Shown here piece after piece: positions 17 through 20,233 of a stretch of 30,963 nt of DNA. This stretch comes from a virus (taxonomy: Duplodnaviria > Heunggongvirae > Uroviricota > Caudoviricetes): the IMG/VR virus record IMGVR_UViG_2548876954_000010, positions 1 through 30,963 of that record, one strand, 5' to 3'. How positions within the stretch are numbered: position 1 is the stretch's first letter; each line of letters begins with the position of its first letter. Under the pieces are notes generated by a model. The model worked only from the letters and a program-made list of their open reading frames with translations, did not search any database and was not told the DNA's origin. A program made the translations under genes and the position numbers.

Positions 17-50
17 TAAAAAAAGGGCCAGCCAATTGGCCAGCCCTTCT
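17..50 (-). terminator. Hairpin with flanking A/T runs; likely rho-independent terminator for leftward transcription at the prophage/host junction
   Basis: Perfect 10-bp palindrome gccaattggc (31-40) extended by GGGC/GCCC arms (25-28 / 43-46), preceded by a 7-A run (reads as U-run on the minus strand) and followed by ttctt. Confidence 0.4.
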
Positions 51-172
51 TAACAGGATGTCGCTTAAGCGAAACCTTAGTTAAGACGCTCCTATTAACA
101 CCCCATAACAAACAAACACTTACCATATAAAACAATTAGTTAATGCAATTTTTAATGCAGTGAATTGCAGCG

Positions 173-1222
173 TTACGCAACCTCTGCCGCCACGTTGTCG
201 CCAATACACAGTGACAACGGATTCAAGGTGACAGCTTGTTCAAGATGGTCAGGAGCAAAGTGCGCATACTTCATTGTTTCACGAATATTTGCGTGACCGA
301 GTATCTTCTGGAGTACAAGGATATTGCCGCCATTCATCATAAAATGCGCGCCAAAGGTGTGACGTAAAACGTGCGTTTTCTGCCCTTCAGTCAATTCAAT
401 GTTTGTGAGTTTGAGCATCTTCTTAAAGTCCTGATAGCAGGGCTTGAACATTCTTCCCTGACGTTCGGACAACTCGTCATACAGCCATTTAGGAATCGGA
501 ACCGTGCGATTCTTCTTACCTTTGGTTTTGGTGAAAGTCAGCTTGCAGGGGGAAAGTTGGGGACGTGTAAGTCTCTCAGCTTCTCCCCATCGTGCGCCAG
601 TAGCCAGGCACACCTTAACAATCATAGTAAGATTTTCTTTGCCATATTGTTCACAGGCTCGGAACAGCTCCGGGAGCTGAGACAAAGTTAGCCAGGACAT
701 TTCTTTCTCAGCTTCTTTGAATACACGAATCCCGTCCAGTGGATTGGGTAAACTCCATTCACCTAATCGCCGCAGTTCATTGAACACAGCTTCGAGGTAT
801 TGCTGTTCGCGATTGACAGTTATAGGTTTGGCGATCCATTTCGCCGGGTCTTTGTGATAGCCGTTGTCTATTTCGCCACGTAATCGACGGTCACGGTAAT
901 GAGCCCAATCTTTAGCGGTAAGACGAGATGCAATAGGGTCGCCCAACCCGTTACATACAATTTGAAGCTTAGCTAACCGCGACTTACTGGCGACCAACGC
1001 CTGTCCATGTAAATTATGCCAAAGCTGGATAATCTCACTTAAGCGTCGGCGGTCTTCTTTCTTGCCGAGCCACGGCTTATCTTCACTCTCGCTTTTCGTA
1101 AATGCTTCGAATGCCTCGGCCTCACCTTTGGTATTGAATTGCCGACGTATTCGCCGCCCTTCTCGCCCATTAGGATAAAGCTCACATAACCATTTGCCAT
1201 TTTTTTGCTTACTTATAGTCAT
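173..1222 (-). CDS. int: Tyrosine-recombinase integrase (P2/186 type)
   Basis: Minus-strand ORF; translation has the C-terminal catalytic region typical of phage integrases (ATGARWGE, HVLRHTFGAHFMMNGGNILVLQKILGHANIRETMKYAHF). Start chosen at internal MTISKQ (ATG at 1220-1222) with GGTGA RBS just upstream, rather than the ORF-track start at 1270. Position next to the repressor fits P2/186 layout. Confidence 0.9.
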   Translation of the reverse strand: MTISKQKNGKWLCELYPNGREGRRIRRQFNTKGEAEAFEAFTKSESEDKPWLGKKEDRRRLSEIIQLWHNLHGQALVASKSRLAKLQIVCNGLGDPIASRLTAKDWAHYRDRRLRGEIDNGYHKDPAKWIAKPITVNREQQYLEAVFNELRRLGEWSLPNPLDGIRVFKEAEKEMSWLTLSQLPELFRACEQYGKENLTMIVKVCLATGARWGEAERLTRPQLSPCKLTFTKTKGKKNRTVPIPKWLYDELSERQGRMFKPCYQDFKKMLKLTNIELTEGQKTHVLRHTFGAHFMMNGGNILVLQKILGHANIRETMKYAHFAPDHLEQAVTLNPLSLCIGDNVAAEVA

Positions 1223-1244
1223 AATGTCACCGAGGCAACTCTTA

Positions 1245-1583
1245 TCATTCGCAAAGTGCTGTCGCAGCATCCATTACGGGATCCAAAGGAATTTTTACTC
1301 CTTCATAATCCGGGCTATTTTTCCAAACAGTATCAATATCGCTCCCCTCAAGCTTTCCAGACTTTACACCATCAATAGCAAACCCATTTAATGGGTATCG
1401 GTCATCTGTTGCTTTGTCGTACACAAAGGCATATCTACCATTAACACAAGACACCGTAGCTTTTTCAAAAGTTAACGGCCAATCATCACCAAACTTAGCA
1501 CCGTCTAAATCCTGTGTTTTTTCAGCGGCTGATGCACCGAAAGAAAGTGAAAGAAATAAAGCTAAAAAAAGCTTACGTTTCAT
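1245..1583 (-). CDS. Small secreted/periplasmic protein of unknown function (moron between repressor and integrase)
   Basis: Start at MKRKLFLALFLSLSFGASA, a classic signal peptide with AxA cleavage motif, with AAGGGA RBS 4 nt upstream. AT-rich relative to the late genes. P2 itself has no gene between C and int, so this is an insertion in my recollection of the canonical layout. Confidence 0.6.
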   Translation of the reverse strand: MKRKLFLALFLSLSFGASAAEKTQDLDGAKFGDDWPLTFEKATVSCVNGRYAFVYDKATDDRYPLNGFAIDGVKSGKLEGSDIDTVWKNSPDYEGVKIPLDPVMDAATALCE

Positions 1584-1591
1584 AATGTCCC

Positions 1592-2428
1592 TTATACGTG
1601 TTTTTCCAATGTGAAAATTACAGCACCTACTGGTGTGATATCTGTAATGCTGCATTCAAACTCGGCAGACTTATTTGACAACCTGACTTTTCCGCCGGGA
1701 AGACGAATTACATCAAAAACATCAAGAGCGCCGTCAATATCAATTAACCAACGCCCATTACTTATGTTCGAAGCAGAACGGTTGACAAGCCAAGAGGCTC
1801 CAACACCTTCAACAAAAATCAACTCCTCTGAGTCAGAGGGTATCATCGAGGGGTCTGGATGCCATTCGCCAGCGTCCTTAAGCTCACCCGCTTCAAGGCG
1901 AAATTTTTTAATTGAAAAACTTGATGTGACCATTTCTCTGTTAGTTCGCATTTGCCCCTTGCCGGTTGCTAACCATTCCAGCGAAACACCAGTATCAAGG
2001 GCACAAGTAACAACTACATCGCCTGGGAAAAAATCACGCCGAACCCATGTGCTAATTGTTCCAGATGATATACCGAGTAAATCACCCAGCTCCTTTTGCA
2101 TAGAAAAACCGTAAGCATCAAGGATGCGTCTCAGAACAGGTTTACCACCTGAAGCCATGACCTTTTCATAAAGCTCTTTGCCCTTCAGGGTCGCACGTGG
2201 AGAGTTTGCTTTTGCAAGCTCCCCTGTCACTAACCATCCGATATCTGCGCCCGTTTCAATAGCACATTCAACAAATACATTGCCCGGAACGCTATCTCTG
2301 GCAAGCCAACTGCTTATGTTGTTGGCATAAATACCAAGTTTTTCGCCAAGTTCTTTTTGCGAGCTAAGTCCATAAGCCGAAAGGATTCTTTCGATAGCCG
2401 GAGCCGCACCATCTCCAAATTTAGCCAT
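1592..2428 (-). CDS. CI-type immunity repressor with tandem-duplicated N-terminal HTH domains
   Basis: 278 aa. Two consecutive copies of the same motif (ERILSAYGLSSQKELGEKLGIYANNISSWLARDSVPGNVFVECAIETGADIGWLVTG and RRILDAYGFSMQKELGDLLGISSGTISTWVRRDFFPGDVVVTCALDTGVSLEWLATG), followed by a ~120-aa C-terminal domain. Divergent from the apl/cII operon and upstream of int, as for a 186 CI-type repressor. Confidence 0.8.
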   Translation of the reverse strand: MAKFGDGAAPAIERILSAYGLSSQKELGEKLGIYANNISSWLARDSVPGNVFVECAIETGADIGWLVTGELAKANSPRATLKGKELYEKVMASGGKPVLRRILDAYGFSMQKELGDLLGISSGTISTWVRRDFFPGDVVVTCALDTGVSLEWLATGKGQMRTNREMVTSSFSIKKFRLEAGELKDAGEWHPDPSMIPSDSEELIFVEGVGASWLVNRSASNISNGRWLIDIDGALDVFDVIRLPGGKVRLSNKSAEFECSITDITPVGAVIFTLEKHV

Positions 2429-2548
2429 GTATCGCCACCAAAATTAATTTTCGCCATTGCAAAATTAAATTTCGCGAACTAAAGTGATGATTATCAACCA
2501 CGATGCACATCAATGCAGTTCACTACAAACAACAGGAGATAATGCGAT
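2429..2548. promoter_or_regulatory. Lysis/lysogeny switch region between repressor and apl-like gene; candidate rightward promoter
   Basis: 120-bp AT-rich spacer between divergent gene starts. Candidate rightward promoter: -35 TTGCAA (2457-2462), 17-bp spacer, -10 TAAAGT (2480-2485). AGGAGA RBS at 2534-2539. P2/186 switches use face-to-face promoters (established for the family); the exact positions here are inference. Confidence 0.4.
2439..2476. promoter_or_regulatory. Two direct repeats (putative operator / Apl-Cox box pair)
   Basis: CAAAATTAATTTTCGCC (2439-2455) and CAAAATTAAATTTCGCG (2460-2476), 15/17 identical, start-to-start spacing 21 bp (two helical turns), overlapping the candidate -35. 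Confidence 0.45.
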
Positions 2549-8796: not shown

Positions 8797-9624
8797 ATGA
8801 CTGGTGTTGTGAATTACGATGTGGTTATCAGGAGTGGTGATCAGCCCGTTGATATGGATTATGCGCTGGAAACGTTAGGCGGAGCATCGGAAGTTACCTG
8901 TTTACTAGCAGAAGCAATCCTACAAAAAAAAGTCGTTAAAAGAAGAAGTCCTGCTAATAAAGCGCGAGCAGTTTTACATCAGAGCTTCCCGAGTTCTTAT
9001 GGACAAAACTTTGCGTTAGCTATAGATGACCCAATATTAAAAGCTCGTTTAGTTGAAATAACCAACCCTGTACTTGCGGAAATTATGGGATTTTACATAT
9101 CTGAAGCTATGTATATACAACCTCCGGCTTTATCAGCACGAGCCAGACATTATATTGAAGAGCTTGAATATCTTGAAGATGAAATTATAAGCCGTATTCG
9201 GAATCCTTTAATACGCATGCACAAAATTAATTACCGTCGCAACTGGGATATTGATTTCAATTTTAAACCTGATGGTAGACAAAGAAAAATAGTGACTTTA
9301 AATACTAGGACTGCAGCAAATCTAACTCACACAACGGTTGAAAGGGAAAGATTTAATATAATTGCAATGGTTACAAGATTCAACTCTCGTACAGGTAATG
9401 GCCGTTTAGTGCTACAAGATGAGGACGAGACTGTTGCTTTTGGTTTTGCCAACCAATTAGGAATGGTTCCGTCCGCACAGAAAAGAATGATTTCTTTGAA
9501 TCTACATAATAATAATGGAAGATCCGATAATTACATATATCTTAGTATGACTGTCAGTAGGGTTGTAATTATGAGCGGTGAGACTGTAAAATATGCAGTA
9601 CACTCTGTGCGTGTATTGGAATAA
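8797..9624 (+). CDS. Hypothetical soluble 275-aa protein, first gene of an AT-rich two-gene cargo cassette
   Basis: ORF with AAGGG RBS. Markedly AT-rich compared with the flanking phage backbone. No TM segment or catalytic motif I can recognise. Its stop (9622-9624) is 2 nt from the next start. Confidence 0.7.
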   Translation: MTGVVNYDVVIRSGDQPVDMDYALETLGGASEVTCLLAEAILQKKVVKRRSPANKARAVLHQSFPSSYGQNFALAIDDPILKARLVEITNPVLAEIMGFYISEAMYIQPPALSARARHYIEELEYLEDEIISRIRNPLIRMHKINYRRNWDIDFNFKPDGRQRKIVTLNTRTAANLTHTTVERERFNIIAMVTRFNSRTGNGRLVLQDEDETVAFGFANQLGMVPSAQKRMISLNLHNNNGRSDNYIYLSMTVSRVVIMSGETVKYAVHSVRVLE

Positions 9625-9626
9625 GT

Positions 9627-10376
9627 ATGAATAGAATTAAGTGCATATGTGGGTTGATACTAGCTGCTGCTTGGGCAGCGTACTATCTTCATTTTGGCAT
9701 AGACGGAAGCCTCTCCCAAAAAACTGAAGTTTGGGGACAGTTTGGCGACTACGTAGGTGGGGTGGTCAACCCCATTTTAAGTTTTATAACCATATATCTA
9801 CTTATTAACTCAATAGGGTTACAGCGCGAATCTAATGAAAGCTTAACCAATGAAATAAAAAGACAAGAGAAGCTAGAGGAATATAAAAAATTTGAGCTAC
9901 GATTCTTTCGCTTGATTGAATCGCAGGAGGAAAACTTCAGTCGTTTTAAAATATGTATATCACAACAGGATGATGATGAGCAAAATGTTGATGAACAGTT
10001 AGAAAAAACAGATGAAATATTGAGTGGTGGAGCAGCAGTAACATTCATTGAAGATTGTTTGTTACCCCTCAAAGAGGCTGGAGTTAGCAAGGAGCGTGTA
10101 TTCCATTGGTTAGATAGTTTGGATGATGATGGATCATTTTTTTCATTAGTAAGACGTTTCTATCTCATTCTCAAATTAGTCGATGCCAATACACTTACAA
10201 AAAGCGAGAGAGATGAAATGTATGAAACGTTGATTAATCTTACTGATATTAAAGTAATTAGCATCATTGCAATCTTGAGTTTGCATTATGATTGGTACGC
10301 AATCAAATACATTAAGGCAACAAAAATTCTTGACAAGGAAGGAGTTAGGGAATTCGTTGAAATGTATAAAATTTAA
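9627..10376 (+). CDS. Hypothetical membrane protein (two N-terminal TM helices plus acidic cytoplasmic domain), second gene of the cassette
   Basis: N-terminus has two hydrophobic helices (ICGLILAAAWAAYYLHF and VGGVVNPILSFITIYLLINSIGL). The rest is charged and Asp/Glu-rich. AT-rich, closely spaced after the upstream gene, followed by a terminator. Confidence 0.7.
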   Translation: MNRIKCICGLILAAAWAAYYLHFGIDGSLSQKTEVWGQFGDYVGGVVNPILSFITIYLLINSIGLQRESNESLTNEIKRQEKLEEYKKFELRFFRLIESQEENFSRFKICISQQDDDEQNVDEQLEKTDEILSGGAAVTFIEDCLLPLKEAGVSKERVFHWLDSLDDDGSFFSLVRRFYLILKLVDANTLTKSERDEMYETLINLTDIKVISIIAILSLHYDWYAIKYIKATKILDKEGVREFVEMYKI

Positions 10377-19259: not shown

Positions 19260-20096
19260 CTAACCTCGTATTATTCCTCTCGATATTTTTATTGCTGGGT
19301 TTTCCTTTCTTATTTCATTTTTAATTTGCTCATCACAAATTAAATAATCTATGTTTTTTGCTTTAACAAGTTCTTTAACGCTAATGTTAATTGAATTTAA
19401 TAGATTTGCATTCCGCATGTTAGCCCCTTCATAAGTAACGGATTTAAAATCACATCCTTTTAATATGCAGCTTTTCATTTCGCTATCTGTAAAATACCCC
19501 CCTTCAAAACTGCAGTTTTCGAAAGTAACATTTTGAAAACGTGTATTAAATGCCTTAATATTTCTTAGCTTGCAGTTTTTGAATTTAACACTCTTAACTC
19601 TATTGCCTGTAATATTTAGAGCTTGAATTGTGCAATTATCGAAAGAACAATCTCTAATGTATGATTCGCTCATATTCAAGCCGGTTAAGTCAGCGTCTTT
19701 AAAATGTAAGTATTTGATAGTGGACATTTTATCAAGTTCAATCCTTGGAACTTGAATGTTATATATTCCTTTGGCATTTAACTGACGTATGATTTTTATC
19801 TTCATAATATTCAGTTCTGCAGAAGAATGCTTTGCCAGATTTTCAAGATCTTCAATTAGTTCGTGAATAGCATCTTTATTTTGCCTTTTATTTTCAAAAT
19901 AGTAAAGGATCACACCCAAAACAAGAAAGTCTAAAATTGAAGAATTTGCATTAACAAGAAAATTCTCCATGAATTTTGAGTTGTAGTTATCATTATAAAC
20001 AGACAACCCTACTATAAGCCCGGAGTATAAAAAAAAGATACCTATAATATATTTCATATTGCTTATTGTACGCCTAAAAGATGAAGTTCTTTTCAT
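19260..20096 (-). CDS. Membrane-anchored pentapeptide-repeat protein (moron, antisense to the late operon)
   Basis: Minus-strand ORF. Start taken at MKRTSS (20094-20096), with 20141 also possible. Two N-terminal hydrophobic helices (YIIGIFFLYSGLIVGLSV, ILDFLVLGVILYYF), then ~20 tandem pentapeptide repeats (CSFDN CTIQA LNITG NRVKS VKFKN CKLRN IKAFN TRFQN VTFEN CSFEG ...). Very AT-rich against a GC-rich backbone. Confidence 0.7.
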   Translation of the reverse strand: MKRTSSFRRTISNMKYIIGIFFLYSGLIVGLSVYNDNYNSKFMENFLVNANSSILDFLVLGVILYYFENKRQNKDAIHELIEDLENLAKHSSAELNIMKIKIIRQLNAKGIYNIQVPRIELDKMSTIKYLHFKDADLTGLNMSESYIRDCSFDNCTIQALNITGNRVKSVKFKNCKLRNIKAFNTRFQNVTFENCSFEGGYFTDSEMKSCILKGCDFKSVTYEGANMRNANLLNSINISVKELVKAKNIDYLICDEQIKNEIRKENPAIKISRGIIRG

Positions 20097-20233
20097 TACT
20101 ACCTGCCATATGTTTTGTGTGATTTTCGAATGAGTCAACACTCAAATGATACATGAATGCACACCGAATTGTGTAGAAGAGCATACAGCTGAATCGTTTT
20201 GCTCTTGGCTTTAACAATCGGCATTCTTTGTTC

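Follow-up and report, generated by a model that had tools for sequence, protein, structure and literature searches.

The gene between cI and int

What is the small gene that separates the immunity repressor from the integrase in this P2-like prophage, and what might its product do for a lysogen? The window, by which we mean the entire 30,963-nt stretch of DNA that was analysed, is a P2-like prophage of the PSP3 type (genus Eganvirus) from E. coli, integrated beside yfiB; its first 2.6 kb share 99.9% identity with strain TUM14697, and positions 1 to ~75 are host flank. Three genes lie on the minus strand at its left end, in the leftward order cI (1592..2428), a 112-aa ORF (1245..1583) and int (173..1222). 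An earlier note, made from the DNA letters alone, had drawn attention to a small 112-aa protein at 1245-1583. We found the ORF exactly there, reading on the minus strand from an ATG at 1583 to a TGA at 1245-1247, with 100% nucleotide identity to the RefSeq gene for WP_024242186.1. A 136-aa reading from the ATG at 1655 was considered and rejected: the extension overlaps cI and is not conserved, and the copy in Escherichia sp. E1V33 lacks it. We therefore take the 112-aa start to be the real one. The preceding gene, cI, encodes an immunity repressor of 278 aa with two Phage_CI_repr HTH domains and a CI_C domain, and is the first gene of the leftward lysogeny block. The gene that follows encodes a tyrosine integrase of 349 aa; its frame in the ORF list reaches 1270, and we placed the start at the ATG at 1222 in keeping with the homologues and RefSeq, which begin at MTISKQ.

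The cI stop codon (1592-1594) and the 8-nt spacer beyond it (together 1584..1594, minus strand) contain the Shine-Dalgarno sequence of the small gene, AAGGGA at 1588-1593, while the 22-nt spacer between the stop of this gene and the int ATG at 1220-1222 (1223..1244, minus strand) contains GGTGA at 1227-1231, the int ribosome-binding site. Both junctions are kept in relatives, as TAAGGGA..ATG 3' of cI and as a GCCTCGGT motif 5' of int (window, L001, L002, L008, L016 and L017 compared). A consensus scan predicted no promoter or terminator among the three genes. Because of this and of the 8-nt and 22-nt spacers, the small gene is likely to be co-transcribed with cI and int in lysogens, a reading taken from the anatomy of the locus; in the annotated record of phage 186, cI-int-orf69 forms one lysogenic operon driven by pL and pE. 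The earlier note had assigned the gene to the repressor-int transcript: its position inside the cI-int block is plain to see, and the shared transcript is the part that stays at the level of likelihood. A divergent switch region (2429..2548) separates cI from the rightward gene at the cox/apl position (2549-2920). The lysogenic and lytic promoters presumably lie in it, as the comparison with 186 pL/pR suggests; a strict consensus scan of this region returned no promoter. Downstream of int, in the host flank beside yfiB, a terminator consisting of a strong hairpin and a T-run (20..51, minus strand) is the likely end of the leftward transcript. One weak terminator-like hairpin lies inside the small ORF, at 1382-1396, on the YPLNG codons described below. 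We ruled it out as an attenuator of int, since synonymous changes abolish it in most alleles.

The small gene also stands apart in base composition. Its GC content is 40.4% (GC3 27%), compared with 45% for cI (GC3 36%), 47% for int (GC3 48%) and about 56% for the late genes, so that the AT-richness relative to late genes pointed out in the earlier note extends to both neighbours. The note had further stated that P2 has no gene in this position, and this is correct: P2 has a 115-bp gap between C and int, and 186, in which cI and int overlap by 1 nt, is likewise without the gene. In its site occupancy (some relatives with the gene, others without) and in its composition (GC 40% and GC3 27% against 45-47% GC in the flanks), the gene resembles a moron. 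It departs from the classical moron in that neither a promoter nor a terminator of its own was predicted, and it appears to rely on the promoters of the lysogenic operon.

Family, fold and predicted export of the product

A homology search, as the earlier note had advised, placed the product in a known family. It matches Pfam DUF2511 (PF10709) with a score of 60.7 bits (cut-off 21; E=1.9e-16; profile positions 5-87 of 87), phrog_2950 over its full length (positions 1-112 of 112, E=3.6e-52) and the PDB sequence of E. coli YebY (7N0J, E=4.5e-7). Together with the low pairwise dN/dS given below, these matches mark the ORF as a genuine gene and no chance reading frame. The K-12 YebY protein is 32% identical over 79 aa, with the Trp and both Cys aligned; residues W35, C46 and C111 are invariant in a 24-sequence alignment and correspond to YebY W37 and the disulfide pair C48-C113. 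An AlphaFold model built from the homologue alignment (pLDDT 76) predicts the antiparallel four-stranded sheet with surrounding helices that is typical of YebY/DUF2511. The mature domain modelled with this fold comprises residues 20-112 (1248..1526, minus strand) and contains the family motif R62-Y-P-L-N-G67. We found no match to the protein in NCBIfam, in the viral structure library BFVD at E<=0.001 or among PADLOC-DB families at E<=0.1. The missing PADLOC match led us to reject a known defence protein as its identity; it takes weight from that idea and not from a possible defence action. This prophage gene codes for a YebY/DUF2511 protein, a small extracytoplasmic domain composed of a four-stranded sheet and helices with one predicted disulfide, and we hold this identity and architecture with high confidence.

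The first 19 codons (1527..1583, minus strand; MKRKLFLALFLSLSFGASA) have the layout of a Sec/SPase-I leader: an n-region MKRK, a 12-residue hydrophobic core LFLALFLSLSFG and a c-region A-S-A, with a Kyte-Doolittle 9-mer peak of 2.3 and predicted cleavage after A19. Across 16 homologues (63-97% identity), the leader drifts in sequence and the mature part is strongly conserved, with 39 invariant columns; A20-E21 at the mature start is invariant and K22 nearly so. This is the pattern expected of a cleaved leader. The window protein has no lipobox cysteine in or after the leader, its cleavage motif being ASA/AEK. The clean Sec signal peptide of the earlier note is borne out by its n, h and c regions, its A-S-A motif and its variability over homologues, and this predicted leader is in keeping with the N-terminal signal peptide of the YebY/DUF2511 family. 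The note had named a lack of export as one finding that would speak against it; in E. coli, YebY has been found experimentally to be periplasmic and disulfide-bonded (PMC8689200). We propose that the prophage protein would be translated from its own ribosome-binding site on the leftward transcript common to cI and int, and would be made in lysogens and while lysogeny is being established. Once exported by Sec and cleaved after A19, it would be oxidised at C46-C111 in the periplasm and would remain soluble there.

Relatives, alleles and cargo of the slot

The window gene has an annotated orthologue, orf28/gp28 of phage PSP3 (NP_958085.1; phrog_2950), and the order cI-X-int recurs in seven cultured phages: PSP3, SEN1, SW9, SI22, Midge, vB_EcoM-613R3 and Klebsiella phage RCIP0057. 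Like the window protein, to which they are 72-91% identical in amino acids, the seven phage proteins are 112 aa long, and their genes share the same cI/int position and near-identical junctions. Nothing of substance sets the window gene apart from this group, in which it represents one of nine allele types. The Midge copy is annotated as a "putative periplasmic protein", RefSeq labels the identical gene of TUM14697 a DUF2511 domain-containing protein, and in 2022 Hadley et al. described some Enterobacteriaceae in which YebY homologues are encoded with a XerD-type recombinase on one side and a phage CI repressor on the other (PMC8689200). The gene is therefore already known, in that it is annotated, its family is known and its genomic context is in print. 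When complete E. coli genomes were searched, the region was matched in 68 of 5,426 and covered to at least 80% in 67, and all 67 have a single chromosomal copy spanning cI, the YebY-like gene and int. The IMG/VR loci found with the clade profile likewise have cI upstream and int downstream in 64 of 64 cases. Together, the seven cultured phages, 67 E. coli genomes and 64 IMG/VR loci rule out a recent insertion unique to this prophage. A scan of species-representative genomes with narrow peptide patterns found 2 loci, and cluster P0020 gave no match in IMG/VR.

We searched the clade profile against 1.84 billion representative proteins and obtained 776 clusters at E<=0.001. The PSP3-type clade forms one cluster at the head of the ranking (1.8e-43), followed by a gap to 1.5e-20; the clusters that resemble chromosomal YebY by sequence, P0037 and P0128, score between 1e-11 and 3e-8. 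Distant relatives with 25-45% identity, drawn from the top of this ranking and not as a random sample, lie within P2-like prophages in 12 of the 12 cases for which the context was looked up. Ten are downstream of an HTH/CI-type repressor gene. The repressor is a single-HTH, 186-type CI of 194 aa in Yersinia and a PSP3-type CI in Winslowiella and Erwinia; an E. coli prophage of the 520873 type has the order small HTH repressor, 216-aa protein, DUF2511 gene and int; relatives in Pseudomonas prophages and metagenome-derived contigs follow small HTH repressors; and one relative follows a LexA-like repressor. The remaining two, from Rahnella and Serratia, sit beside ogr-gpD at the prophage end. The P2-like prophages with DUF2511 genes at their repressor-to-integrase end, which come from Enterobacterales and Pseudomonas, have repressors of four or more unrelated types, and the YebY-like gene is an accessory gene, yet an old and recurrent one in these prophages. 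The window protein shares 25-36% identity with the proteins of other prophage groups and 30-32% with K-12 YebY; because it is no closer to the former than to the latter, a single phage clade is not established.

These comparisons also bear on how the earlier note had interpreted the locus. The note would have lost ground had the gene belonged to all relatives and served a known intracellular function, and the gene is missing from some of them. Its description of the locus stands. What it missed was membership of YebY/DUF2511, the existing annotation as PSP3 orf28/gp28, the printed context and the long residency in P2-like prophages, so that its interpretation, with the exported protein as a candidate for lysogenic conversion, is reasonable and supported in part.

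Some of the distant loci have features of their own. In Rahnella aceris (L023:5001-5363) and Serratia quinivorans (L143:4001-4486), the DUF2511 gene is beside ogr-gpD-gpU-tape measure, and the loci adjoin host rpoD and a UDG-family (mug-like) gene, with no integrase within the stretch fetched; these may be int-less or domesticated P2-like elements. The Serratia quinivorans protein is 161 aa long and has an extra N-terminal zinc-ribbon-like (UPF0547) segment. Winslowiella toletana (L020/L021, 1-5339) carries a prophage remnant with cI and a DUF2511 gene directly downstream of chromosomal copC-copD-yebY, so that two DUF2511 paralogues are about 3.5 kb apart. This adjacency may be a coincidence of the integration site or a clue to how the gene was captured.

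In the PSP3 group, the YebY-like gene exists as nine divergent alleles, which have been swapped as a cassette between conserved flanks. We compared 65 PSP3-type loci and found 45 unique proteins that fall into nine allele types, with 48-84% amino acid identity between types; several of these types occur within E. coli alone. When the loci L082 and L084 were aligned with the window, nucleotide identity was mostly 90-97% in the cI and int flanks and 45-67% in the YebY-like gene. Synonymous sites are saturated between allele types, which indicates old alleles moved by recombination rather than recent rapid change. Pairwise dN/dS against eight relatives is 0.04-0.16 for the YebY-like gene, with no sign of positive or diversifying selection, compared with 0.05-0.20 for cI and 0.02-0.04 for int; the gene is under constraint similar to that on cI and weaker than that on int. 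The allelic diversity could also reflect neutral mosaicism, in linkage with the variable immunity region.

The slot between repressor and integrase holds other genes as well. In E. coli E21 (L015:2652-3056, minus strand), the YebY-like gene is replaced by a gene for a 134-aa protein with a predicted Sec signal peptide of its own (MKRSIFAL...A/QPS) and two cysteines. The same protein is encoded upstream of the YebY-like gene in Escherichia sp. E1V33 (L008:3570-3974, plus strand) and in the IMG/VR locus L052; the E21 and E1V33 copies are 77% identical, and the protein has no Pfam, PADLOC or NCBIfam match. A 168-aa bPH_3 + SHOCT protein is encoded between the DUF2511 gene and int in four IMG/VR loci (L060, 3355-3861, plus strand; L064; L067; L068) and also 3' of the DUF2511 gene in the Winslowiella prophage remnant (L021:5475-5975), insertions which indicate that the slot accumulates cargo. 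In other prophages, the DUF2511 gene is followed by genes for GmrSD_N and HEPN proteins or for a HATPase_c_3 protein. The E1V33 junction between its two cargo genes is a hybrid of both junction motifs (agcctcggtaagggaattt ATG), and such a hybrid would fit the gain of cassettes by recombination at short junction sequences.

Possible function and other features of the window

Prophage genes that are co-expressed with the repressor and alter the lysogen include lambda rexAB and P1 sim; P1 Sim is exported by Sec to the periplasm and blocks superinfection once adsorption has taken place. Like these genes and the 186 orf69 position, the YebY-like gene is an accessory gene placed in the repressor/lysogenic transcript, absent from close relatives and of atypical base composition, whereas its product has no sequence or fold similarity to any of theirs. 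We tentatively propose that it is a soluble periplasmic binding protein that may act at the envelope to shield the lysogen, whether through superinfection exclusion or through toxin immunity. The protein would intercept an agent on its way through the periplasm, for instance a peptide toxin or the ejection machinery of a P2-like phage attempting superinfection. P1 Sim would be one parallel in function, and the structural relative MlbQ, a lantibiotic self-resistance protein, another. We were led to this proposal because the gene travels with repressors of unrelated families, because it is confined to P2-like prophages, because its slot is common to other exported or defence-like cargo and because its allelic diversity resembles that of the immunity region. 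Several observations speak against protection of the envelope: the protein matches no PADLOC family, NCBIfam family or viral fold; pairwise dN/dS is low, with no sign of positive selection; and the only two characterised members of the family point elsewhere, YebY to the modulation of copper import and MlbQ to lantibiotic resistance in an actinomycete. The explanation as a whole, in which identity, architecture and a protective function are combined, has our moderate confidence. We found nothing relevant in the literature on periplasmic superinfection exclusion in P2-like phages. Two proteomics papers that name DUF2511, one reporting a chromosomal YebY-type peptide in Enterobacter cloacae and the other an unspecified E. 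coli DUF2511 protein, have no bearing on the phage protein, and a paper that places YebY beside a Yersinia prophage is irrelevant to function.

The chief rival explanation, suggested by the family relationship itself, is a role in copper physiology, in which the prophage protein would act like YebY on the host proteins YobA (CopC) and YebZ (CopD), damping copper import or, as a decoy, enhancing it, and would thereby alter the copper load of the lysogen and copper-dependent mar induction. Prophage protein and YebY share family and fold, copper levels in the cell fall when YebY is co-expressed with YebZ, and mar activation depends on the yobA-yebZ-yebY operon (PMC11923076). This operon is present in enterobacterial hosts (seen for K-12), and the Winslowiella prophage remnant directly adjoins chromosomal copper genes. 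Yet E. coli YebY (b1839; 7N0J) is encoded by the third gene of the copper-uptake operon, whereas the prophage gene, with its GC3 of 27%, belongs to a lysogeny operon: in no prophage copy examined were cop genes linked to it, and its neighbours in the window and in PSP3-type relatives are cI and int rather than copC and copD. The similarity to YebY falls short of the level of an orthologue (only 32% identity over 79 aa), and the motifs differ, with YPLNG and VW in the window protein in place of the YPLND/E and IQ/IL/IT of operon-linked YebY. In the phage-clade profile search, the nearest relatives, at 1e-20, are prophage-borne, and the YebY-like clusters P0037 and P0128 follow only at 1e-11 to 3e-8. 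YebY moreover binds copper weakly and only with its disulfide reduced, which its authors considered probably not physiological (PMC8689200), and nine reassorting alleles in one host species are hard to square with a conserved host target. We regard the copper explanation as unlikely, and we do not think that the prophage protein acts on copper.

The other characterised relative points to toxic peptides. MlbQ (PDB 2MVO/6QFP), a structural relative of the window protein, is a self-resistance lipoprotein of Microbispora that, in the part of PMC8689200 dealing with it, is proposed to confer resistance by binding the lantibiotic NAI-107. By analogy, the prophage protein could bind a bacteriocin, a microcin, a lantibiotic-like peptide or a host defence peptide in the periplasm and make the lysogen resistant, an explanation that overlaps with protection at the envelope and differs in that the target is not a phage. 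The allelic diversity would suit different ligands. Still, MlbQ has a long unstructured linker and is encoded with ABC transporters in a Gram-positive lantibiotic cluster, whereas the phage protein has a plain SPase-I leader: it lacks the lipobox of LanI/MlbQ proteins and any membrane anchor, and no ABC transporter or toxin gene adjoins it. Nor does peptide immunity explain the strict tie to P2-like prophages, and lantibiotics normally do not reach the Gram-negative periplasm; we consider it quite improbable. Alternatively, the protein might do nothing in particular: the ORF might be retained chiefly as a translated spacer, with coupling of translation or polarity between cI and int setting the level of int expression, or it might be a neutral passenger. 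The tight gene packing and conserved junction sequences would agree with this, as would the fact that P2 and 186 do without the gene. However, the mature protein is under purifying selection (dN/dS 0.04-0.11); the 16 homologues, with their 63-97% identity, keep 39 invariant columns; prophage copies of only 25-45% identity retain the fold and the disulfide cysteines; and the gene occurs behind unrelated repressors and at times has no adjacent int. A spacer or passenger is accordingly very improbable.

Returning to protection of the lysogen at its envelope, a broader form of the proposal, which we regard as doubtful, is that the DUF2511/YebY-fold proteins from the repressor operons of P2-like prophages constitute a widespread and unrecognised class of periplasmic superinfection-exclusion or immunity factors, whose alleles are shuffled as cassettes, each directed at a different phage component or toxin. 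If this were so, it would hint that chromosomal YebY and MlbQ also capture a protein or peptide rather than handle a metal. With its product assigned to the YebY family, the gene loses most of its mystery and stands as an ordinary, annotated accessory gene of PSP3-type prophages. Beyond the existing annotation, our comparisons add the prophage location of the distant relatives (12/12), the exchange of a nine-allele cassette and the variable cargo of the slot. What keeps the gene of interest is that a protein predicted to be exported is encoded with the repressor, exists in many old alleles and recurs across unrelated repressors and hosts. Were it an exclusion or immunity factor, the defences encoded by prophages would gain a periplasmic mechanism, and a family of at least 776 sequence clusters would have its first clear function; a protein that instead tuned copper import would show that prophages alter the metal and antibiotic responses of their host.

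Several other features of the window and its relatives are worth recording. The window CI, at 278 aa with two tandem HTH domains, is longer than 186 CI, which has 192 aa by its annotated coordinates, and the long two-HTH form is present in most DUF2511-bearing PSP3-type prophages. An AT-rich island (8797-10376, plus strand; GC 35-37%) encodes ORFs of 275 and 249 aa that have no Pfam match; the 249-aa ORF gives a weak PADLOC match to the ZorB/MotB N-terminus (E=3e-4). Replication gene A flanks this island on one side and the late genes on the other, at what in P2 is a hotspot for cargo and defence genes. Among the structural (late) genes, a second island of 30-40% GC includes a gene for a 293-aa pentapeptide-repeat protein (19260-20141, minus strand; PF13599, E=7e-17) with a weak N-terminal SLATT-like PADLOC match, and this gene is probably another accessory gene. 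Finally, the region downstream of int in E. coli SA53-3 (L005:1728-2961, minus strand) contains two additional ORFs of 156 and 256 aa, neither of which matches Pfam or PADLOC. They occupy the 186 orf69 position and mark a second site of variable cargo, where the lysogenic operon ends.
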